Assembly (NCBI GenBank): GCA_035279445.1
Contig: DATEHV010000008.1
Span: forward strand, 6,525 to 70,524
From: Candidatus Acidiferrales bacterium
GTDB taxonomy: Bacteria; Acidobacteriota; Terriglobia; Acidiferrales; UBA7541
Reading direction: 5' to 3'
DNA: 64,000 nucleotides
Below are positions 1,615 through 64,000 of the stretch, piece after piece (the stretch's first letter is position 1; each line of letters begins with the position of its first letter). The translations under genes were made by a program, and so were the position numbers. The notes below the pieces were generated by a model. The model saw nothing but the letters and a program-made list of their open reading frames with translations. It did no database searches and was not told the DNA's origin.

Positions 1615-2610
1615 TCAATCGTTGCGAATGCCGATTGCCGCCATCATGCGGCCGGTGGTGCGCTCGCGTCGATAGCTGAAAAAGAGTTCGGTACGGCACG
1701 CGGTGCAGAAACCGGACGACAGAATCTGCGCCTGCGGTACGCCCGCGCCGGCCAGGATGGCTCGATTCGCGGCGATGAGATCGAGATGAACTCGCAGCGG
1801 CGGGGGCTGGTGTCCGGGCGGCATCATCGTGAGCCAGGGAAGCCAGTTCGGATCGTTTTCGTCGGAGGCGAGCGCGTCGAATGGTCCGTCAAACCAATCG
1901 CGAGCCTTTGTGAACTGGGCGTGGAATTCCACCGCGACCTCGGGCCCGACTTCATAGCAGCAGCGGCCGATTCCGGGGCCGAGCGCGGCGATCACATCCT
2001 CCGGTCGCGTCCCGAACTCCATTTGCATCCGCCCCAGCGTTTTCTCGGCGATGCGGCCAAGCGTGCCGCGCCAGCCCGCATGCACTGCGGCGATGGCGCG
2101 CCGCTTCGTGTCCGCCAGAAGAATCGGAACGCAATCCGCGGTTTGCACGGCGAGCAGGACGCCGTGCTCGCGGGTAAAAAGCGCGTCGCCCTGGGAAGTA
2201 TTCTGAGCCTCGGCGGGCGAGGAACTCACGCGATGCACAACATCAGAGTGAATCTGCCGCAGCGTGACGCAGCGCATTTCGCCGGAGCCAAGAGCGCGAA
2301 AGAAACTTTTGCGGTTCTCACGTACGCACTCGCGCGAGTCCCAATCGGTGAATCCGAGGTTCAGCACCTGTTCGGGCGATTTGCCGCTGCCTTGCGTTTT
2401 CGCCGGAATGCTCGCGGCGAGCTCGCTTACGCCGCCGAAGCGCGTGCTGAACCCGTGGACCAGCCAGTCCAGCCGCGCAAGCGCCGTCGCTTCGAGGATC
2501 TGCAAGCGGCCGGCGTGGCGCAAGGTCCAAGCGGCGTGCTTGTTGGCCGGCACGCGCCCGGCCGCGCGCTTTTCCGGCGAGGCCGTTTTCTTCGCTAGGG
2601 TTGACGACAT
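1615..2610 (-). CDS. pgeF: Peptidoglycan editing factor PgeF / YfiH (DUF152, purine nucleoside phosphorylase-like)
   Basis: 331-aa ORF with the family triad context: QIHSDVV, TADCVPILL, HAGWRGT. It has a longer N-terminus than typical, so the start is uncertain. Confidence 0.85.
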   Translation of the reverse strand: MSSTLAKKTASPEKRAAGRVPANKHAAWTLRHAGRLQILEATALARLDWLVHGFSTRFGGVSELAASIPAKTQGSGKSPEQVLNLGFTDWDSRECVRENRKSFFRALGSGEMRCVTLRQIHSDVVHRVSSSPAEAQNTSQGDALFTREHGVLLAVQTADCVPILLADTKRRAIAAVHAGWRGTLGRIAEKTLGRMQMEFGTRPEDVIAALGPGIGRCCYEVGPEVAVEFHAQFTKARDWFDGPFDALASDENDPNWLPWLTMMPPGHQPPPLRVHLDLIAANRAILAGAGVPQAQILSSGFCTACRTELFFSYRRERTTGRMMAAIGIRND

Positions 2611-3077: not shown

Positions 3078-4450
3078 CGGGCGCTGCGAGCGGGCGTCGC
3101 CGGATCCGCAAGGTCTTGCGCGTCCGCCGGAATGCGAATGTCGTGCCACTCGTTCACCGGATGGCGTCCGGGGATTCGCAGCTTCAGGTAATTTCCCGTC
3201 AGTGCTTCGGTCCAATCTTGCCCCCCACGGCCGAGCGTCAGCGCGCGCACGGCGCGCCCCGCCTGCGCCCTGCGGAACTCTTCGGACTTTCGCAGCCCGA
3301 GGGCCCGAAGACTCCGGGCCCGCTCGCGGATGGATTCCAGGCGAACGGCCCCGCCGAGATTCGCCGCTGCAGTTCCGGGGCGCGTCGAGAACGAAAACAC
3401 ATGCAGGTATGTGAACGGTTGTCGTTCGATGAATGCGAAGGTGGCGCGAAAATCTTCCTCCGTCTCGCCGGGAAAGCCCGCGATGACGTCCGCTCCGATC
3501 GCCGCGTCGGCCAGCGCGCGGCGGATGAGGCTCACGCGCTCGGCGTAGTGCTCGGAGCGGTACCAGCGGTGCATGGCGCGCAGGATTCGGTCGGAGCCCG
3601 ATTGCAGCGGCGCGTGAAAATGCGGCGCCAAGCGATCGGACGAGGCCACGAGCGCCACGAAATCTTCGGTGATGTCCTGCGGCTCGATTGAGCTGAAGCG
3701 AAGCTGCTCGAGTTCGGTCTCGTCGAGGATTCGCTGAACGACGCCGGCGAGTCCGGCGCGCGGGACGAGGTCGCGGCCATAGCTTCCGAGATTGATCCCG
3801 CTCAGGACGATTTCCCTCGCGCCCGCATCCACGAGCGTCCACACTTCGCGGATTACATCATCTGGAGGCAGGCTGCGGCTGCGCCCGCGCACGAAGGGAA
3901 TCACGCAGTAGGAGCAGCGATTGTTGCAGCCGTCCTGTATTTTCAGGATGGGCCGTGTGCGGTCGCCCGCCATCAGCGTCGCGGGCGCGATCTGTACTGC
4001 GGTTTGCGCGAAGATGTCGCCGGTCAGGATTCTCGCCGGGCCTCGTGCGAGCGACATCGCCGCGCCTTCGAGTTGCGCCAGCGGGAAGAAGTCGGCGCGC
4101 GCCGGCTGCGCCACAACCCCTTGAAGGATGTCGGGTATTTCCGCCTGGTGCGAATTCCCCACCACCCAGGCGACACCCTCCATCGCCGCAAGTTCCTCGG
4201 GCGCGCGCTGCGCGTAGCAGCCGGTGACAACGACGCACGCGCCGGGATTCGCGCGGTGAATTTTTCGTATGGCGTCGCGCGCCTGAGAATCCGCGGCAGC
4301 CGTCACGGTGCACGTGTTCAGCACGACGACGTCCGCGGACGCGTGACCCGCGGAGGGCGTCAGGCCCTTTTCGAGCAACGCGCTGCGAAGCGCGGCGGCG
4401 TCGGCCTCCGTAGCGCGGCAGCCAAAGTTCTCAATGGAAAATGTCGCCAT
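3074..4450 (-). CDS. mtaB: MiaB-like radical-SAM tRNA methylthiotransferase (MtaB type)
   Basis: 458 aa. N-terminal UPF0004 domain (FSIENFGCRATEAD), radical-SAM CNNRCSYCVIP, and a C-terminal TRAM-like region. The stop overlaps the acpS stop (convergent). Confidence 0.85.
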   Translation of the reverse strand: MATFSIENFGCRATEADAAALRSALLEKGLTPSAGHASADVVVLNTCTVTAAADSQARDAIRKIHRANPGACVVVTGCYAQRAPEELAAMEGVAWVVGNSHQAEIPDILQGVVAQPARADFFPLAQLEGAAMSLARGPARILTGDIFAQTAVQIAPATLMAGDRTRPILKIQDGCNNRCSYCVIPFVRGRSRSLPPDDVIREVWTLVDAGAREIVLSGINLGSYGRDLVPRAGLAGVVQRILDETELEQLRFSSIEPQDITEDFVALVASSDRLAPHFHAPLQSGSDRILRAMHRWYRSEHYAERVSLIRRALADAAIGADVIAGFPGETEEDFRATFAFIERQPFTYLHVFSFSTRPGTAAANLGGAVRLESIRERARSLRALGLRKSEEFRRAQAGRAVRALTLGRGGQDWTEALTGNYLKLRIPGRHPVNEWHDIRIPADAQDLADPATPARSAR

Positions 4451-19628: not shown

Positions 19629-20043
19629 TGGACTGCTCAAGGGTGTGCCTCCGGTTATGTTCGAGAGTGAGAGAATCCGATTGATTCGCCCCTTATATCG
19701 CACCGCGCCGGAAAAAGCTGTTCCCGTGTTGCGTCGTCTTGCCCGAAGTTCTTTGGAGCACACTCCACCAAAGTCCACGCGCGCGATCCCTTGCGCCTCG
19801 TTCTGTGTTATGGCAGCGTGGATCTAGAGGTGTGCAGTGCAAAGTTTGACGAAGGCAGGATGGAAGTCCCGGCCGCGAGGCCCGGAGGGAAGCGGCCGGA
19901 GCAGAACCTTGTCCCGGCCCCTGCACCCCGGACGACCCAACGAGGGTCGCCGCGCGGAGCGAAACACCCAATCCGCGTCCTGCGCGTTCCAGATGTCTTT
20001 CAGGGACGCGGGTCCGGCGGATGCGGGCGCCTCCACACGGCTA

Positions 20044-20072
20044 TTTCTAATCGACACTCCGGCGATTAGAAA
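20044..20072. promoter_or_regulatory. AT-rich perfect inverted repeat (candidate operator) upstream of ppk2
   Basis: TTTCTAATCG-N9-CGATTAGAAA. The half-site CTAATCGACAC recurs at 20112-20122, 23 nt before the ppk2 ATG. Confidence 0.3.
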
Positions 20073-20144
20073 TGACTCCAAAGCTATGAAAACAAAGGAT
20101 CGGCGCTCATGCTAATCGACACACTTTCAGGGGCCGCAAGCTGA

Positions 20145-33156: not shown

Positions 33157-34380
33157 ATGAACCGGCGAGTTGCCATTTTGTCGGGGGCGATATTTGCGCT
33201 GATCGCCGGGCGATCGGGCCGGGTGGGATTGACGGCACAGCCCTCGCCGCACGCCCAAGCGAACGCCGCACCCGCGCAGCAACCGGTTGCTTACGCCCGC
33301 TTCGCGTTCGGCGGGAATGCCGCTCAGATTCCCGCGGAGTTCATCGGCAATCTAATCCTCGTGCCCGCGCACGTCAGGCAGAGCCAGCCGTTGCTCTTTG
33401 AACTCGATTCGACGGCGGCGGTTTCGTCGATCGACCCCGGTCGCGCGTCCGAGCTAGGTATCGCAGACCTGCGGGCCCCGGTCCTCAATTTTAGCGGCGT
33501 CGATATTTCGCTCAGCGGCATCGCCAAAATCGCCCGAAAAGATTTCAGCGCGCAGGTGGGACGGCCGTACGAAGGCACCATCGGCAACGACATCCTCGAG
33601 GGCGTCGTAGTCGAACTGGATTACGTGCGCCAAGGGGTGCGGCTCTACGATCCGGCACCTTACCAATATTCCGGCAAAGGCAAGATCCTTCCTTTGACTT
33701 TTGTCGGAGGAATGCCGGTAGTGAAAGCGAGGGTCACCATCGGGGGGCGCAAGGCTCCTGACGCCGATTTCATTGTGAACACGGCCCTTGACGCGCCCGT
33801 GGTTATTTCCGACAAGTTCGCGCAGGCGCACCATCTTATCTCGTCACATACGAGAACGATTCCCGCGACCGGACTGCAGCTCGGCGGGAGCGATCGCGCC
33901 GTGTTCGCGAGACTGGAGGAATTCCAGATCGGACCTTACAGGGTAGAGGAGCCGCTCGCGGCGTTTTCTCAGGGGAGTTTGCCGGACGCCGGCGACTTGC
34001 GCATTGCCGGCGAAATCGGCGGAGGGATGCTGCGGCGCTTTGACGTGGTTTTCGATTACGCGCGGCGGCAGATGATTCTCGACCCCAGCAGCGACTTCCG
34101 TGCCGACGATCTCGAAAACATGAGCGGGCTCTCGATCGTCGCCAAAGGGCCGGGGCTCAAGCAGTTTGAGATCGCGGAAGTGAGGCCCGGATCGCCGGGG
34201 GCCGACGCGGGAATCCGGAAAGGCGATGTTATTGCGGGCGTGGACGAGGAAGCCGCCGCGGATCTTTCGCTGGTTTCCATCCGCGACCTTTTTCGTCAGG
34301 TGGGTCACAAGTACAAGCTGCTGATTGAACGGGACGGCAGAACGCTTCCGATTACCGTCCAAATGCGCCGCCAGCTCTGA
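33157..34380 (+). CDS. Secreted retropepsin-like aspartyl protease with C-terminal PDZ domain
   Basis: Signal peptide, two aspartic-protease-like half sites (LFELDSTAAVS, FIVNTALDAPV), and a PDZ domain (IAEVRPGSPGADAGIRKGDVIAGVDE). Confidence 0.72.
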   Translation: MNRRVAILSGAIFALIAGRSGRVGLTAQPSPHAQANAAPAQQPVAYARFAFGGNAAQIPAEFIGNLILVPAHVRQSQPLLFELDSTAAVSSIDPGRASELGIADLRAPVLNFSGVDISLSGIAKIARKDFSAQVGRPYEGTIGNDILEGVVVELDYVRQGVRLYDPAPYQYSGKGKILPLTFVGGMPVVKARVTIGGRKAPDADFIVNTALDAPVVISDKFAQAHHLISSHTRTIPATGLQLGGSDRAVFARLEEFQIGPYRVEEPLAAFSQGSLPDAGDLRIAGEIGGGMLRRFDVVFDYARRQMILDPSSDFRADDLENMSGLSIVAKGPGLKQFEIAEVRPGSPGADAGIRKGDVIAGVDEEAAADLSLVSIRDLFRQVGHKYKLLIERDGRTLPITVQMRRQL

Positions 34381-48540: not shown

Positions 48541-48569
48541 GTAGGGGCGTAGCACCGCTACGCCCGGCG
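48541..48569 (+). repeat. REP-like palindromic element, left copy
   Basis: GTAGGGGCGTAGCACCGCTACGCCCGGCG has an internal hairpin GGCGTAGC-acc-GCTACGCC. Its perfect reverse complement occurs at 48720-48748. Confidence 0.8.
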
Positions 48570-48719
48570 AGCGATCTTGGCACCGTCGCTCCGATCCGAG
48601 GGATGCAAGATGCCAAAGGGTTTGGAATTTTCGTACCGCACTAGAACCAAATCGCTGGAGTTGTGCCAAGCATGGGTGACCTAAACGAGGCAAATGGGGT
48701 AAGCTTCGCCAAGGATGTG

Positions 48720-48748
48720 CGCCGGGCGTAGCGGTGCTACGCCCCTAC
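48720..48748 (-). repeat. REP-like palindromic element, right copy (inverted)
   Basis: CGCCGGGCGTAGCGGTGCTACGCCCCTAC is the exact reverse complement of 48541-48569. It lies ~30 nt upstream of the RayT-like ORF. Confidence 0.8.
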
Positions 48749-48777
48749 GGCTGGAGGTTGTTTCATCTGTGCCGGAG

Positions 48778-49359
48778 ATGAACGTCGAGAAGCTACTGCC
48801 GCGACGCCACACCGTTCGTTTGCCGCAGTACGATTACTCGCGACCGGGTGCGTACTTTCTTACGATATGCACGAGGGAAAGAAGATCCCTATTCAGGACA
48901 GTGGTCGGACGGACGGCGAAACTGAGCGGTGTGGGGAAAATTGTTGACGAGTGTTGGCGCGCGATTCCGTCACATTTTTCGAATGTTCAAGTCCCTATCC
49001 ACGTCGTAATGCCGAATCATGTTCACGGAATCGTCTTGATTCGAAAGCGGCTCGCGTGAGACGTGAAGAGAGGCCCAGTGACGCATAACTCGCGGCGGCT
49101 CGGCGCGCACGTATCGGGCTCGATTCCGACGATCGTGCGATCATTCAAGTCTATCGCCGCCCGTCGAATCCGGGAGCACGGAGCGGCGCCGACACTGGAA
49201 GTGTGGCAGCGCGGATATTTCGAACGCATCATTCGCAGCGAGGAAGAATTCGGAAGGATCTGGGAGTATATTCGCCTGAATCCGGCAACGTGGAACACCG
49301 ACGAAGAGAATCCCGAATCAAGCACAACGGTGCGAAACCTGCCAGTTGCCCGCAGCTGA
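48778..49359 (+). pseudogene. REP-associated tyrosine transposase (RayT / IS200-like Y1 transposase) interrupted by one in-frame TGA
   Basis: HUH motif (MPNHVHGIV) in track ORF 48715-49059 and the catalytic Tyr region (WQRGYFERIIR) in ORF 49063-49359. Both are in the same frame, separated only by TGA at 49057-49059. The start could also be GTG at 48769. Confidence 0.72.
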
Positions 49360-59868: not shown

Positions 59869-60819
59869 TCAGCCCGCGCTGCTTGCCGACGCAATCTGCT
59901 GCCGGAAAAAATCGTAGGTAAGCCGCAAGCCCTCTTCCAATTTAACTTTCGGCTCCCAATGCAAGATTTGGCGGGCCTTCGTGATGTCGGGACAGCGCTG
60001 CTTGGGATCGTCCTGCGGGAGCGGGCGAAGCACAATTGGCACATCGGCGCCGACGAGCGCGCGCACGCGCTCCGCGAACTCGAGAATCGTGATCTCCTGC
60101 GGATTGCCGATGTTCACCGGCTCGTGTTCGTCCGATTCGAGCAAACGGTAGATGCCTTCGACCAAATCCGAAACGTAACAAAAACTCCGGGTCTGCTTTC
60201 CGTCGCCGTAAACGGTGATGGGCTCGCCGACGAGCGCCTGATAGAGAAAATTCGGAAGCGCCCGGCCGTCGTTGAGGCGCATGCGGGGTCCATAGGTGTT
60301 GAAGATGCGCACGATGTGCGTATCGAGGCCGTGGTAGCGGTGATAGGCCATGGTGATTGCTTCCGCGAATCTCTTGGCCTCGTCGTACACACCGCGGGGC
60401 CCGATCGGATTCACGTGTCCCCAGTACGTCTCCGGCTGCGGGCTTACTTCGGGGTCGCCGTAACATTCCGACGTGGAGGCCTGAAGAAATTTTGCCTTTT
60501 TCGCCATCGCCAGGCCCAGCGCATTGTGGGTCCCGAGCGCTCCGACTTTCAGTGTCTGGATCGGGAATTTCAGATAGTCGGGAGGGCTTGCCGGCGAAGC
60601 GAAGTGGAGCACGGCATCCACAGGTCCCTCAACCTCGATGTATTTCGAAACGTCCTGCCGGGCGAACGTGAATCGCGGGTGCGAGAGCAGATGGCTGACA
60701 TTCGAATCGGCGCCGGTGACAAGATTGTCGAGGCAAAAAACGTCCCAGCCCTTCGCGATGAAGAAATCGCAGAGGTGGGAACCCAGGAAACCCGCTCCGC
60801 CTGTTATGACCGCGCGCAA
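59869..60819 (-). CDS. uxs: UDP-glucuronate decarboxylase (UDP-xylose synthase), SDR family
   Basis: [24 protein letters not shown], and YDEAKR (YxxxK). 316 aa. Confidence 0.88.
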
Positions 60820-60954
60820 GTTTGTTTGTCCGCTCCTTCGAGGATTTGTTTGCCGAGCGCCGGATTCATTATGTACGAAATCGACGCTGAGACGAAGGGT
60901 TCGGAAATGACTCCTGGCCGCGAGGGTTACGCCGGCAGGCAGCCCACTTCGAGC

Positions 60955-61054
60955 AAAATGCGCCCGCCTAAAAGGCGGCCGCTACAAAGGCAAACGCAAA
61001 GGCAAGAGCAAAAGCAAGAGCAAAAGCAAAAGCAAAAGCAAAAGCGGATCCCTC
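60955..61054 (+). repeat. Repeat-family element, copy A (core + expanded GCAARA hexamer tract)
   Basis: AAAATGCGCCCGCCTAAAAGGCGGCCGCTACAAAGGCAAACGCAAAGGCA + hexamers + GGATCCCTC. Near-identical core at 61960-62006. Confidence 0.85.
60990..61043 (+). repeat. Hexanucleotide-phased microsatellite (GCAANN)9, including 4 consecutive perfect GCAAAA units
   Basis: Read directly: gcaaac gcaaag gcaaga gcaaaa gcaaga gcaaaa gcaaaa gcaaaa gcaaaa. Confidence 0.9.
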
Positions 61055-61691
61055 GGCTTCCGTGCGCCGCTCGAAATTTCGATCCTGGCCGGGTCGAAAA
61101 GTGTGACACTTCGCGGGGGCCGCTTTCGTTTGTTTTGAACGAGTTACACGGTGATTTGATCGGCATGGTGTGACACTTCGTTTGTCGAGGTTCGAGACTG
61201 ATCGTTCGAGGCGAGGAGTGGGAATCCTGTCTGTGCGTTTGAATTGCGCGAGCGATGCTTAATCCAATGCCAAATCTTGCGAGAGCGAGCGACTTCGCCG
61301 GCTTGGTGGAGGCCTTTGAACCGTGTCGATTAGAAAAAGGGAGGGCGATGAGAGGCGATAGTCGCACCGTCAATTTTCAAAGAGCGTCCGGCCCTCGTTA
61401 AGAGGGCGGCAGTGGTCTCTCAGGGCCGGCTCGCCGCCGGCACCAGGAGCCATCCCAGGGGCTCGATTCCATAGCAGGGCCATTAAAGATCTCCCGAGCG
61501 CCTCTCACCGAGGCCTCGGGAGCCCTAATTGAAGCTATCACACGGCGCAAGTCCCCGCAGATTTGCGTACACCTCTAGCGATATGAGGGGAAGAGGCTTA
61601 GCTGAGGGTTGAGAGGCCGAAAAAGATGCGAATTCGGCGCGGGTGACAAGTGGGCGGGGAAGCCGTCTCTCTTGCACGGCGAAGCGGCTTA

Positions 61692-61745
61692 CCCGCCCCG
61701 CCTGAAGGCGGCTGCTACGAAGGCAAGTGCGAAAGCGAATCCCTC
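61692..61745 (+). repeat. Repeat-family element, copy C (unexpanded)
   Basis: CCCGCCCCGCCTGAAGGCGGCTGCTACGAAGGCAAGTGCGAAAGCGAATCCCTC has the same order of blocks as copies A and B, with only three GCNNNN hexamers. Confidence 0.7.
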
Positions 61746-61959
61746 GTCGATCGGACTGCGATCTCACTCGAGATGATAACGAAGGACAGAACCACGGTGT
61801 GGCAGCGGCGAAGTCCATCCCACCCTTCGCAAGACGCGCGAAGGATGGGCCACCCACAAAACCGTCTTGGGCGTTAAGCCGCGAGACGGCGAAGATGTTT
61901 GCCGGACACGTCACACCGCGCCCCCAAAAAGACGCCTGCGAGACGCCGGCGTCACGAAG

Positions 61960-62047
61960 AAAATGCGCCCGCCTAAAAGGCGGCCGCTACGAAAGCAAAC
62001 GCAAAGGCATAAGCATAAGCATAAGCATAAGCATAAGCAGATCCCTC
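61960..62047 (+). repeat. Repeat-family element, copy B (core + GCATAA tract)
   Basis: AAAATGCGCCCGCCTAAAAGGCGGCCGCTACGAAAGCAAACGCAAAGGCA + (GCATAA)5 + GCAGATCCCTC. The core has 2 mismatches to copy A. Confidence 0.85.
62007..62036 (+). repeat. Perfect hexanucleotide microsatellite (GCATAA)5
   Basis: Read directly. It sits at the position homologous to the GCAARA tract in copy A. Confidence 0.92.
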
Positions 62048-62165
62048 ACCGCCATCCGCCAACGGCGCGGGTGGGTTCGGGATGACCGCGAGGGGGAGGG
62101 CCAGCGCGACAAGGGCGAGAGTGAAGCGCACAGGCAGGATTGCCTGTGCCACGACAACGAATCTT

Positions 62166-62205
62166 GCCCGCCTGAAAGCAGCCGCTACGAAACCAACGGC
62201 GAACA
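62166..62205 (+). repeat. Repeat-family element, copy D (degenerate 5' half)
   Basis: GCCCGCCTGAAAGCAGCCGCTACGAAACCAACGGCGAACA aligns to the core CCGCCTGAAGGCGGCYGCTACGAA. Confidence 0.55.
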
Positions 62206-62283
62206 CCCACGCTGGCAAACCGAGCATGGGGCGCCCGGAAGACCCAAACGTCGAAGCCCGGGGCGCAAAGGGCGAGCTACGAC

Positions 62284-62327
62284 GGCAAATGCAAAAGCCG
62301 CGCACGAGCTTTCGCCTTGCATTTGCC
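62284..62327. other. Strong extended hairpin in the leader/promoter region of the Ig-like protein gene
   Basis: GGCAAATGCAA ... TTGCATTTGCC is a perfect 11-bp stem, with an inner AAGC/GCTT pairing. It lies 124 nt upstream of the ATG at 62451. Confidence 0.6.
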
Positions 62328-62450
62328 GCGGCTGGTTGCTTGATACGCCATAGCGGGCGGTCATTCTCGGTCGTGGGAGCCGATTTTTGTGCTCTAAATA
62401 ATAGAGGCGATTCACGGAAATCAAGAGGCGGGTGAATTCAAGGGGTGGAT

Positions 62451-64000
62451 ATGGCGACGGCGAAGCGCACAGGATTCCCTCCCATTTTGTGCCTGGCGAT
62501 GCTGTTTTTTGTGCAGAACTACGGCTGCCTGAGCTGCTCGGGAATTCCGTCGAACTTCAACTCGGTGGTGCTGTCTGCGAGCGCACGTCAGATCGGCCCG
62601 AACGGCGTGGTCACCATCACGGCGACGGTCCCGAAAGACACGACCGGCGCGGGCGTGACGTGGACCTCCAATGCGCCGCCAAACCCGGGGACATTTACGC
62701 CAACGAGCGTTACCCAGTCGAGCTATACGGCTCCGTCGTCTGTCGCAAGCCAGTTCACGGTGACGATTACGGCCACTACATTGAGCGCATCAATTACTCC
62801 GCCTGAGGTGGCGTCGATAACGATCACCGTTACGCCGCCGCAGCCGTTGAGCATCACGACGACGACGCTGCCGAGCGGCATCGTCGGTAAGGCGTATCCC
62901 GCTGGGACGCAGCTGCAGGCCACCGGCGGTGTGACGCCTTACACATGGGCGCTCACTGCAACTTCGAGCCCGCTTCCCGCCGGCCTGACGCTCGCTGCGG
63001 ATGGAACCATCACCGGCACGCCGACCGCCAGCGGGACTTTCAACTTCAACGTCCAGGTCACGGACAGCGACACACCGCCCGTGGTCAAGACGGCGCCGCT
63101 GACCATCAAGGTCACCGACCTGCTGACCGGAAAATACGCGTTTGAATTCAGCGGATTCAAGGCCAACGGCACCGTGGTGGTTGCAGGCAGCTTTACATCG
63201 GACGGACTCGGAAACATCACGGCGGGCGTCGAGGATTTGAATTCGATCACGGGGCCGCCCACGAGCGGGACTCTGGAAACCTTTACGGGCACCTACACGC
63301 TCGGCGCCGACAACCGCGGCACGCTGACATTCATTACGAACAAATCGGGGACGCTAGTTTACGCGTTTGCGCTGGATGCCACGGGCGTCCATGGACGCAT
63401 GGTCGAATTCGACACGACGTCCGGGATACGCGGATCGGGCGAGCTCGCGCAGCAGACCACCTCGACCTGCGGTGCGAACACGCTTTCCGGGAGCAGCGGA
63501 ACCGGCTTTGCCATCGAAGTCCTGGGCGCAGCCGGAAGTTTTCCGGGAGTGTCGCCGGGCGCGGTGGCGTTTGCGGGGCGGTTCACTGCCGAAGTGCCGC
63601 CGAGTTCGGGCAGTATAGGAACGATCGACAACGGAGAGATCGACGCGAACGTCCCGAATGGGACGGCCATCAACCCACTGACGCTCTCGGGCACGTTCCA
63701 GACGACCGCCCAGACCGCACGGTGCACGATGAGCGTTTCTCCTTCGACGCTTGCGAGCGAAACGTTCAGCGTCTATCCGATTTCGTCCACGGCGGGATTG
63801 CTCACGGAGGCATTCGTGGTCGAGACCGACACGGTGAGCGCGGGCACTCCTTACATCACGGCCGGCAAACTGATTCAGCAAGTCGGGTTCCCCTTTACCG
63901 TGCCGAGTAACCTCTTTACGGCAACCAGCGTCGCGGGCCTATCCGGCAACGCAATTCCAAACGGCGGCGCGGCCTACCAGCCGTTCGCGGGCATCGCGGA
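62451..64000 (+). CDS. Large secreted/surface protein with Ig-like (putative Ig / Big-type) repeats; 3' partial
   Basis: ATG at 62451 after AAGGGGTGG. Signal-like ILCLAMLFFVQNYGCLSCSG. Repeats of the type LSITTTTLPSGIVGKAYPAGTQLQATGGVTPYTWAL...LPAGLTLAADGTITGTPTASGTFNFNVQVTDS. The frame stays open to the window end. Not listed in the ORF track because no stop is reached. Confidence 0.78.
   Translation, partial: MATAKRTGFPPILCLAMLFFVQNYGCLSCSGIPSNFNSVVLSASARQIGPNGVVTITATVPKDTTGAGVTWTSNAPPNPGTFTPTSVTQSSYTAPSSVASQFTVTITATTLSASITPPEVASITITVTPPQPLSITTTTLPSGIVGKAYPAGTQLQATGGVTPYTWALTATSSPLPAGLTLAADGTITGTPTASGTFNFNVQVTDSDTPPVVKTAPLTIKVTDLLTGKYAFEFSGFKANGTVVVAGSFTSDGLGNITAGVEDLNSITGPPTSGTLETFTGTYTLGADNRGTLTFITNKSGTLVYAFALDATGVHGRMVEFDTTSGIRGSGELAQQTTSTCGANTLSGSSGTGFAIEVLGAAGSFPGVSPGAVAFAGRFTAEVPPSSGSIGTIDNGEIDANVPNGTAINPLTLSGTFQTTAQTARCTMSVSPSTLASETFSVYPISSTAGLLTEAFVVETDTVSAGTPYITAGKLIQQVGFPFTVPSNLFTATSVAGLSGNAIPNGGAAYQPFAGIA

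Follow-up and report, generated by a model that had tools for sequence, protein, structure and literature searches.

A gene-free 1.6-kb island between divergent uxs and Ig-like genes in an Acidobacteriota genome: very probably a cluster of REP-type elements

What fills the 1.6 kb between the divergent uxs and Ig-like surface protein genes in the 64,000-nt stretch of Acidobacteriota DNA analysed here (hereafter "the window")? An earlier note, made from the letters of this stretch, called the island non-coding and offered three readings of it: a nest of REP/MITE-like elements mobilised by a RayT such as the one at 48778, one or more structured RNAs, or a complex regulatory region of the Ig-like gene. 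The non-coding call is borne out. The codon-usage model built for this analysis, which recovers the neighbouring genes, called zero genes in 60820-62444, the resulting gap of 1625 nt exceeds every other gene-free stretch of the window (the runner-up is 929 nt), and the island's ORFs had no significant Pfam match (the sole match, PF24341, reached E = 0.006 and 16.5 bits for a cut-off of 27). Broadly speaking, the island is very probably a cluster of REP-type elements accumulated in the divergent uxs/Ig-like intergenic region, where short hairpin repeats (REP elements, passengers of RayT transposases) piled up specifically in this lineage, and both a new RNA gene and a purpose-built control region are disfavoured. 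Since the same REP repeats are scattered through soil Acidobacteria genomes, the island would be ordinary mobile-repeat debris, which would explain the window's most conspicuous non-coding stretch.

The recurrent unit of the island is a ~45-nt element, REP1, with four same-strand (+) copies at 60952, 61686, 61957 and 62156 (copies A to D) and a weak fifth (Table 1). On the minus strand, each unit reads GTAG and then an imperfect G+C hairpin of 9 bp, the arrangement by which repetitive extragenic palindromes (REPs) are defined. In copy A, the plus strand reads an A-rich lead, a CGCCCGCCT-aaa-AGGCGGCCG hairpin with a C.C mismatch, and CTAC-AAAGGCAA, the GTAG foot preceding the hairpin on the minus strand. 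Copies A and C are 87-95% identical, with a common TAAAA loop, an upstream ATG and 15 nt of tail in common, and fold as single-stranded DNA with z about -2.4. A repeat search placed the copies at 60961, 61694, 61966, 62167 and, weakly, 62256, all on the + strand, so that the positions first given for these copies were correct to within a few bases, as was their shared orientation. The degenerate core then proposed (0 matches expected in shuffled sequence) is exact at 61698 and has 3 mismatches at 62168, but misses copies A and C, whose loop is one base longer than an ungapped pattern accommodates. Likewise, the stem-loop ascribed to every copy folds well in A and C but is weakened in B and lost in D, and the partial fifth copy keeps its tail but has a degenerate stem. 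Together with ancestral sequence, this fifth tail forms a 12-bp perfect inverted repeat (62283-62294 / 62317-62328, fold -18 kcal/mol).

Matches to R1, a covariance model built from 89 REP1 family members, are irregularly spaced (734, 271 and 199 nt from start to start), and the REP1 copies and the other footed hairpins of the island all lie on the + strand. A CRISPR array was considered and rejected because of this irregular spacing, the repeat identity being 60-95%. By inspection, no MITE hallmark (terminal inverted repeat or target-site duplication) was evident around the units. As REP1 is confined to the island within the 64 kb, apart from a single marginal R1 match inside an ORF (33522-33580, 16.8 bits), a high copy number in the source genome is suggested by its relatives.

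Table 1. Features of the island and of the RayT-like locus in the same window (R1, covariance model of REP1; L numbers, loci from other genomes).
Feature	Position	Strand	Evidence
Inverted pair of another REP, GTAG-GGGCGTAGC-acc-GCTACGCCC	48541-48565, 48724-48748		Perfect 9-bp stems, CTAC/GTAG foot; 95% match in L043
RayT-like Y1 transposase gene, in-frame TGA at 49057-49059	48778-49359	+	REP_Tyr_transpos 55 bits (cut-off 80); Pfam Y1_Tnp 24.8 bits
Ancestral uxs-proximal upstream block, motif ATTATnnnCGAAA at ~60868-60880	60820-60900	-	Aligns with L119, L121, L122, L123
REP1 copy A	60952-60995	+	R1 62.4 bits, E = 6e-18; ssDNA fold -9.6 kcal/mol
Hexanucleotide microsatellite GCAAAA/GCAAGA, extending the purine-rich REP1 tail	60985-61045	+	Tandem Repeats Finder: period 6, 10.2 copies, score 87
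Family 2 hairpin, degenerate (GGATCCCTC...GATCC), palindrome TCGAAATTTCGA inside	61047-61085	+	Same place after REP1 and microsatellite as 62040-62086
~80-nt conserved element, two GTGTGACACTTCG boxes 67 nt apart, not REP-like	61101-61180	+	81% identical to L112 4490-4580
Unique spacer (no repeat family, coding signal or homologue)	61190-61685		No blastn/tblastx match (1.1 Mb of related loci), no Pfam match
REP1 copy B, stem partly eroded	61686-61728	+	R1 46.2 bits; fold -5.6 kcal/mol
Family 2, degenerate (GAATCCCTC...CGAGATGATAAC)	61737-61780	+	Composite order as at copies A and C
Family 3 REP-like hairpin, CCCACCCTTCGC-loop-GCGAAGGATGGG, then CCAC (minus-strand GTGG foot)	61819-61853	+	-10.6 kcal/mol, z = -4.5
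Degenerate REP-like hairpin, GACGCC..GGCGTC-ACGAAG	61931-61959	+	Fold -9.9 kcal/mol
REP1 copy C, sister of A	61957-62000	+	R1 61.7 bits; fold -9.6 kcal/mol
Microsatellite (GCATAA) x5.5	62007-62039	+	Tandem Repeats Finder: 100% matches, score 66
Family 2, canonical: GATCCCTC, variable inner hairpin, TCGGGATGAC	62040-62086	+	One of 24 pattern matches across loci and window
Family 4 REP, CACAGGCA-gga-TTGCCTGTG, then CCAC (minus-strand GTGG foot)	62129-62152	+	-11.0 kcal/mol, z = -6.1
REP1 copy D, decayed	62156-62198	+	R1 24.7 bits; two stem pairs broken, no stable fold
Weak fifth REP1-like copy, tail GCTACGACGGCAAATGCAAAAGC	62256-62298	+	60-65% identity to reference copies
Ancestral Ig-like upstream block (GGTTGCTnnATACGC...CGGTCATTCTC...TCTAAATAA...AGGrG-ATG)	62310-62450	+	70-77% nt identity with L119, L120, L121, L122, L127

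Beyond the window, REP1 proved to be dispersed: a 20-nt core pattern of it is present, among the matches listed, in more than 118 eight-kb blocks of public genomes, often several per genome. Among these listed matches, 104 blocks are from Acidobacteriota, Terriglobia or Acidoferrales, mostly Ca. Acidoferrales, and a single MAG contributes up to 11 core-bearing blocks; the covariance model gave 106 matches in 60 blocks. The consensus of the 89-sequence alignment is AAAnnCGCCCGCCT-loop-AGGCGGCCG-CTAC-AAAGGCAA, with a 9-bp stem and a conserved C.C mismatch. CTAC follows the 3' arm in 89/89 copies, a figure partly imposed by the search pattern, and is kept in members that lie outside this selection and in stem variants (...gccCTAC, ...cgCTAC). 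REP1 is predominantly extragenic (154 of 170 matches outside predicted genes), and in 87 of 131 cases a co-directional gene precedes its GTAG-sense strand, the median distance from the stop codon being 68 nt (p = 2e-4), which is the usual placement of REPs (PMC3733652). Family-wide, adjacent REP1 pairs are on the same strand in 25 cases vs. 2 inverted ones, a strong preference for head-to-tail order, which REPs do not usually show.

The family is also associated with RayT transposases. In one genome (locus L069), the ORF at 3130-3651 is a bona fide RayT (NCBIfam REP_Tyr_transpos 106 bits, cut-off 80) bracketed by REP1, which lies at 2949-2983, immediately ahead of the start codon (3094-3118) and across the stop codon (3640-3666), and a 56%-identical RayT (L068) has REP1 upstream, so that REP1 brackets or precedes a RayT in at least two other genomes. 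Upstream of a third, 43%-identical RayT (L074) lies an inverted pair that differs in its stem but has the same CCGCTACAAA tail, and a RayT-like gene in L005 has family-4 REPs on its flanks. With its GTAG foot and imperfect hairpin, its occurrence at more than 100 Acidobacteriota loci and a RayT bracketed in another genome, REP1 shows that the first reading, a nest of REP/MITE-like elements, was right. The mobiliser named in that reading is not supported: the RayT-like gene at 48778 has an in-frame TGA, scores below the NCBIfam cut-off, is 26% identical to the L069 RayT, and stands just downstream of a different REP (the 48541/48724 pair, GGGCGTAGC-GGT-GCTACGCCC-CTAC). This gene does not appear to be cognate to the REP1 of the island, and no L069-type RayT was found in the 64-kb window.

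Other modules are interspersed with the REP1 copies. The microsatellites seen at first reading were recovered as two tracts, and the order "REP1, GCAA-rich spacer, family 2" (GATCCCTC…GGGATGAC) recurs elsewhere, once in L108 and twice in L110. Palindrome TCGAAATTTCGA is present at 61071-61082 as described, and GACGCCGGCGTC exists as well but lies at 61942-61953, one base from the position first given. Family 3, which contains the 12-bp stem noted at 61819-61849 (-10.6 kcal/mol, z = -4.5), has 19 related copies in 15 loci, the inner stems of which differ yet stay complementary, and family 4 has 14 copies from 9 sources, with covariation (G-C, C-G and T-A) at one stem pair. The hairpin at 61931-61959 is related to GCCGGCG-nnn-CGCCGGC-GCTAC elements, with intact relatives in L013, L055 and L093. 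A generic scan of the window for a hairpin followed by CTAC or CCAC yielded 23 matches vs. 14-30 in Markov simulations, hence no overall enrichment, the informative strong zero-gap cases being those at 48541, 48724, 60961, 61819, 61966 and 62129.

Five orthologous loci (L119, L121, L120, L122 and L123; uxs 84-90% and Ig-like 47-66% identical in amino acids) have intergenic regions of 299, 298, 218, 218 and 253 nt, respectively. The only parts of the window that can be aligned to this intergenic DNA are ~60855-60885 and 62310-62446, and as the edges alone are conserved, ~1.35 kb of the island is a lineage-specific insertion. An assembly chimera was rejected on inspection, both flanks being syntenic with the orthologous loci.

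These orthologues weigh against the view that the island was selected as a complex region controlling the Ig-like gene and/or uxs (e.g., an insulator or a protein-binding-site array), which we consider very improbable. The position between divergent genes of surface-related functions would suit such a region, as would the hairpin followed by a T tract that REP1 presents on the uxs-coding strand, and E. coli REP clusters bind IHF, gyrase and Pol I (summarised in PMC6006769). However, the orthologues suffice with 218-299 nt containing only the gene-proximal blocks, and the same blocks are kept here; the complex control region suggested earlier for the Ig-like gene is thus at odds with orthologues that retain these short gene-adjoining blocks without the island interior. 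Copies B, D and the fifth are decaying, which argues against selection on each unit, and the same units occur mostly at the 3' ends of unrelated genes. In the flanks of REP1, autocorrelation at period 6 is weak (0.309 vs. 0.277 in control intergenic DNA), and we do not claim a binding-site array.

It is very improbable that one or more structured non-coding RNAs specific to this locus (an sRNA or a cis-regulatory leader) are encoded in the island. Several of its hairpins are far more stable than shuffled controls, REPs are often transcribed, and 61101-61180 is ~80% conserved at two other places on one related MAG contig. Nevertheless, the earlier option of a locus-specific RNA is not supported, given the lack of the island interior at all five orthologous loci and the presence of the repeated units in more than 100 unrelated gene contexts. 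The Rfam search proposed at first reading returned no family at either gathering or permissive thresholds (Rfam 15, whole window: 0 matches at gathering score; at E <= 10, the best sub-threshold matches had E >= 0.37 and were to unrelated eukaryotic or enterobacterial families). Moreover, no promoter-like site was found in 60500-62700, terminator-like sites were not in excess of expectation, and consensus folding of the three sequences of the 61101-61180 element on either strand gave no usable covariation.

A contingency (phase-variation) locus, in which the hexanucleotide microsatellites tune surface polysaccharide or protein genes by repeat number, would account for two nearly perfect period-6 tracts upstream of surface-related genes, yet it is highly improbable, as neither tract falls within the conserved blocks near the promoters (the distances are ~165 nt to the uxs start codon and ~410 nt to the Ig-like start codon) and both are extensions of the purine-rich REP1 tail in a family with a weak period-6 signal. 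An unrecognised protein-coding gene has a negligible probability: although ORFs of 148, 129 and 208 aa are present, they cross repeats and microsatellites and fall below the threshold of the codon-usage model, the lone Pfam match (PF24341) is far sub-threshold, tblastx found no protein-level match save the 80-nt element conserved at the DNA level, and the absence of the island from the orthologous loci together with the negative codon model answers the question. For annotation, the spurious ORFs 60927-61373, 61650-61877 and 61727-62353 can be masked, and an RNA-gene proposal is unnecessary here.

How might a cluster of REP-type elements have reached this size? What is established for REP/RayT and IS200/IS605 systems suggests a plausible mechanism: the REP1 hairpin would form in single-stranded DNA, and RayT would recognise the hairpin and its GTAG foot, and cut and rejoin there, seeding new copies. 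The island would then have grown by insertion of further REP-like families (families 3 and 4 with their GTGG foot, and that of GATCCCTC...GGGATGAC), by local duplication of the composite unit of REP1, spacer and family 2 (copies A and C), and by slippage of purine-rich hexamer tails into microsatellites. An intergenic region of ~220-300 nt would thereby have swollen to 1631 nt, with the core upstream blocks of both genes left at its edges. Any effect on expression would be a by-product; as the uxs-coding strand reads a hairpin and then a short T tract, REP1 could, like REPs elsewhere, stabilise RNA ends or keep transcription from running into uxs.

Classical REPs are found preferentially as inverted doublets that follow genes, whereas the island's copies are all head-to-tail and in a divergent promoter region. 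In other respects REP1 resembles the GTAG REP/RayT systems, or REPtrons (Nunvar, 2010, PMC2817692; Di Nocera, 2013, PMC3733652; Messing, 2012, PMC3479197; Quentin, 2018, PMC6006769): it is likewise a short imperfect G+C palindrome with a GT[AG]G 5' foot (a foot that the GTGG-footed families 3 and 4 also have), it has, in related genomes, many extragenic copies mostly downstream of genes, it brackets the L069 RayT and precedes the L068 RayT, and, as in REPtron genomes, several REP classes coexist in one genome. Unlike the described REPtrons, the REP1 family is from Ca. Acidoferrales/Terriglobia; the Acidobacteria surveyed in PMC3733652 and PMC6006769 have tyrosine transposases with long terminal inverted repeats or CnGA-footed structures, not GTAG REPs. 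The family documented here, with its GTAG foot and a cognate RayT, belongs to soil bacteria of Ca. Acidoferrales/Terriglobia, where REP/RayT systems appear little described in these surveys. It also carries a practical warning for the assembly and binning of such genomes.

The island also recalls the BIMEs of E. coli, intergenic mosaics of REPs and other short conserved motifs of up to hundreds of bases. In BIMEs, the REPs are regularly spaced and alternate in orientation (PMC2817692), whereas the island's units are in one orientation and irregularly spaced, and its microsatellite and GATCCCTC...GGGATGAC hairpin are unrelated to BIME motifs. REP1 belongs to the same class as REPINs, i.e., RayT-dependent non-autonomous elements (Bertels and Rainey, 2011, PMC3116915), and both the 48541/48724 pair and the one upstream of the L074 RayT have the appearance of REPINs, but the island has no inverted REP1 doublet and the family consists mostly of singletons and tandem arrays. 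It is tempting to speculate, although we consider it unlikely, that the REP1 family, unlike REPIN doublets, grows as one-directional head-to-tail arrays with purine-rich hexamers as spacers, for example by RayT insertion beside an existing GTAG foot or by replication slippage. Growth of this kind would produce "REP islands" on the kilobase scale, able to move divergent promoters away from each other. The head-to-tail habit is of modest interest for REP/RayT evolution. As for family 2, its minus strand (...CCGA, an inner hairpin, GAGGGATC) is similar by description to the CnGA-foot hairpins of class 3 TnpA-Y1 transposases (Quentin, 2018, PMC6006769), structures of Acidobacteria and Planctomycetes that reach high copy number (~600 in Solibacter usitatus, PMC6006769). 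Unlike in those systems, a search for HuH/Y motifs in the window and the fetched loci found no class 3 transposase gene near the family 2 copies, the only genes recovered being the known RayT-like ones in L005 and L069.

Finally, ~500 nt of the island (61190-61685) and the 80-nt boxed element fit none of the repeat families. When 61090-61700, the central part of the island, was compared by blastn and tblastx with the remainder of the window and with 1.1 Mb of related loci, nothing but the boxed element matched, and the spacer contains the compound hairpin described in the earlier note, which folds at 61491-61522 (-14.3 kcal/mol, z = -4.5). The boxes of the 80-nt element are the 13-bp direct repeat GTGTGACACTTCG reported at 61101 and 61168, which was confirmed at both positions. 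Besides its L112 copy, the element occurs at ~2440-2520 of L010, both loci lying on one Acidobacteriota MAG contig in unrelated gene contexts, and a role of this GTGTGACAC-boxed element as an undescribed small RNA or regulatory module is conceivable, if unlikely.

The island (60820-62450) lies between the starts of minus-strand uxs and the plus-strand Ig-like gene, and a codon-usage model trained on long ORFs recovered both neighbours with zero genes called between them, making this the longest gene-free gap of the window (1625 nt vs. 929 nt for the second longest), as an earlier note had it. The sole Pfam match among the island ORFs was far sub-threshold (PF24341, E = 0.006, 16.5 bits, cut-off 27). 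The repeat family described in that note was confirmed by a repeat search, with all copies on the plus strand (see table) and zero occurrences of its core pattern expected in shuffles; the reported microsatellites, 13-nt direct repeat, palindromes and hairpins were all found, offset by at most one base.

To place the main repeat, REP1, its 20-nt core GGCGGCYGCTACRAARGCAA was scanned against one genome per prokaryotic species. Matches occurred in >118 eight-kb blocks. Among those listed, 104 are Acidobacteriota (chiefly Ca. Acidoferrales/Acidiferrales and Terriglobia MAGs), and a single MAG contributes as many as 11. Eleven of the 14 listed non-Acidobacteriota matches, inside genes and without the hairpin, were set aside as chance matches. 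Full copies (48-64 bits) on contigs binned as Saccharimonadales, Verrucomicrobiia and Methylomirabilota (loci L002, L014 and L031) more likely reflect mis-binned Acidobacteriota contigs than horizontal spread.

The consensus of 89 aligned copies is AAAnnCGCCCGCCT-loop-AGGCGGCCG-CTAC-AAAGGCAA, in which a 9-bp stem carries a conserved C.C mismatch, the loop varies in length, and a CTAC that is invariant, in part because the search pattern required it, directly follows the second arm on its 3' side. On the opposite strand this reads as GTAG, an imperfect hairpin and a short T tract; a GTAG foot with an imperfect hairpin is the defining anatomy of repetitive extragenic palindromes (REPs; PMC3733652; PMC6006769), and we classify the REP1 unit, on its predicted fold, as a GTAG-footed REP. 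The CTAC/GTAG foot is kept also in copies outside the search pattern and in variants with other stems. A covariance model of the 89 members gave 106 matches in the first 60 blocks and scored the four island copies at 62, 62, 46 and 25 bits; over the 64-kb window it found no further REP1 save one marginal match within an ORF. Four loci (L006, L013, L029, L056) hold long-loop copies with 25-40-nt insertions (e.g., ...cccttcg..ctcagggtaaa...), which look like another small repeat nested within the REP.

In placement, the REP1 family resembles known REPs, which are usually extragenic and 3' of genes (PMC3733652): 154 of 170 family matches lie outside predicted genes, and for 87 of 131 the GTAG-sense strand is found 3' of a gene read in the same direction (median 68 nt from the stop codon, p = 2e-4). 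REP1-bearing intergenic regions exceed the average size (median 300 nt vs. 133), the window island being near the top of observed sizes (largest sampled, 2082 nt). Less usual for REPs are the position of the window cluster in a divergent promoter region and the nearly exclusive head-to-tail arrangement of adjacent copies (25 same-strand pairs vs. 2 inverted, p = 6e-6).

REP1 also brackets a REP-associated tyrosine transposase (RayT) gene elsewhere. At locus L069, a 173-aa ORF scores 106 bits against the NCBIfam model of that name (cut-off 80), and REP1 occurs 150 nt upstream, directly before the start codon in GTAG sense and across the stop codon, which is a classical REPtron. The stop codon is within the downstream REP1 loop (3640-3666, ...GCGCCCGCC-TGA-AAGGCGG...), so the 3' end of the transposase gene and its own REP overlap. 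At L068, REP1 precedes a RayT 56% identical to that of L069; at L074 (43% identical), the upstream inverted pair has a different stem and the same CCGCTACAAA tail. The earlier reading of a nest of REP/MITE-like elements was thus right in general, given the footed hairpin, its dispersal and its association with RayT. The partner then proposed, the RayT-like gene at 48778, is not supported: it is a different protein with a sub-threshold family score, its frame holds a single in-frame TGA (49057-49059) between the HuH (HVHGIV) and catalytic-tyrosine (WQRGYFERII) motifs, and a different REP adjoins it. This second REP class, GTAG-GGGCGTAGC-acc-GCTACGCCC, forms a REPIN-like perfect inverted pair, 158 nt apart, on the upstream side of the gene. 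The TGA may mark a pseudogene, stem from a sequencing error or be recoded. The right-hand element with its upstream flank (48706-48749) is 95% identical to a Ca. Acidiferrales MAG locus (L043).

Other modules of the island are likewise dispersed repeats. In family 4, one stem pair occurs as G-C, C-G and T-A, and its elements flank a RayT-like gene at L005; the inner stems of family 3 vary yet remain complementary. The order REP1, GCAA-rich spacer, family 2 occurs three times in the island and again at L108 and L110. Copies A and C are sisters: they have the same loop, 15 nt of tail and an ATG upstream in common, with weaker similarity farther upstream. This points to a composite unit that was duplicated locally and whose hexamer tracts would then have diverged to GCAAAA/GCAAGA vs. 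GCATAA; B, D and the fifth copy are eroding.

Features of the window and related elements (window coordinates unless a locus is named)
Feature	Position	Strand	Details
Conserved ~80-nt stretch	20043-20126
Second-class REP pair	48541-48565; 48724-48748		inverted
RayT-like gene	48778-49359		Y1 transposase; 26% identical to L069 RayT
uxs	59869-60819	-	UDP-glucuronate decarboxylase-type; Pfam GDP_Man_Dehyd/Epimerase, E = 1e-50 or better
uxs-side aligned block	~60855-60885		around ATTATnnnCGAAA
REP1 copies A, B, C, D	60961; 61694; 61966; 62167	+
REP1 fifth copy	62256	+	weak
Boxed element	61101-61180; L112 4494-4572; L010 about 2440-2520		~80 nt; two near-palindromic GTGTGACACTTCG boxes 67 nt apart
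Unique sequence	61190-61685		~500 nt; includes strong compound hairpin
Family 3	61819-61853		CCCAC...ATGGGGCACCC; 19 copies
Family 2	62040-62086		canonical copy; GATCCCTC, variable hairpin, TCGGGATGAC; 24 copies
Family 4	62129-62152		CACAGGCA-gga-TTGCCTGTG-CCAC, GTGG foot; 14 copies in 9 sources
Ig-like-side aligned block	62310-62446		~140 nt, well conserved
Ig-like gene	starts past 62450	+	putative Ig domain; Pfam He_PIG match

Metagenomes scanned with the Ig-like protein as query yielded orthologous loci that show the window's divergent pairing of uxs (84-90% amino-acid identity) with an adjacent Ig-like gene (47-66%), at intergenic lengths of 299 (L119), 298 (L121), 218 (L120), 218 (L122) and 253 nt (L123). 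These align only with the two edge blocks of the window's intergenic region; the ~1.35 kb between them has no counterpart, and no REP1 copy was found across 79 kb of these loci. By this comparison the island reads as a lineage-specific insertion, and the missing interior and absent REP1 therefore argue against a locus-specific RNA gene or essential control region. Immediately upstream of the Ig-like gene, 62310-62450 (including GGTTGCTnnATACGC, CGGTCATTCTC and TCTAAATAA) is 70-77% identical in nucleotides to five loci (L119, L120, L121, L122, L127) whose Ig-like protein is only 56-66% identical; conservation here is thus unusually high, and the block is a candidate promoter or 5'-leader element.

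Apart from the ~500 nt of unique sequence and the boxed element, the island is most probably ordinary REP-type repeat debris, with REP1 as a sequence family new within the known REPs and unusual in its head-to-tail habit. The best-supported explanation is that RayT-dependent hairpin elements would have built up passively in the uxs/Ig-like intergenic region, with local duplication and microsatellite slippage as further contributors to its growth. On the biochemistry established for the E. coli RayT (PMC3479197; PMC3733652), we infer that REP1 spread would be RayT-catalysed. Any terminator, insulator or RNA-stabilising effect of the island would be a side-effect.

The ~80-nt boxed element lacks a GTAG foot and gave no Rfam match; its internal TTTGTTTT and GAGTTA are conserved. 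One Acidobacteriota MAG contig carries it at ~80% identity at two sites separated by 192 kb (L112, L010), whose contexts are unrelated: one adjoins a secreted-protein gene start and the other is just past a deoB-like gene. The element may be a small RNA, a mobile element of low copy number or two binding sites for a protein. In that deoB-like ORF (L010 2444-3724, long-read MAG), the ~80 residues at the C-terminus look frameshifted (Arg-rich nonsense), which suggests indel errors, and homopolymer-level detail in these MAGs therefore needs caution. Elsewhere in the window, the stretch at 20043-20126 is 80-83% identical to several unrelated loci (L016, L022, L060, L099) and probably represents a small conserved gene, for instance one for a tRNA.
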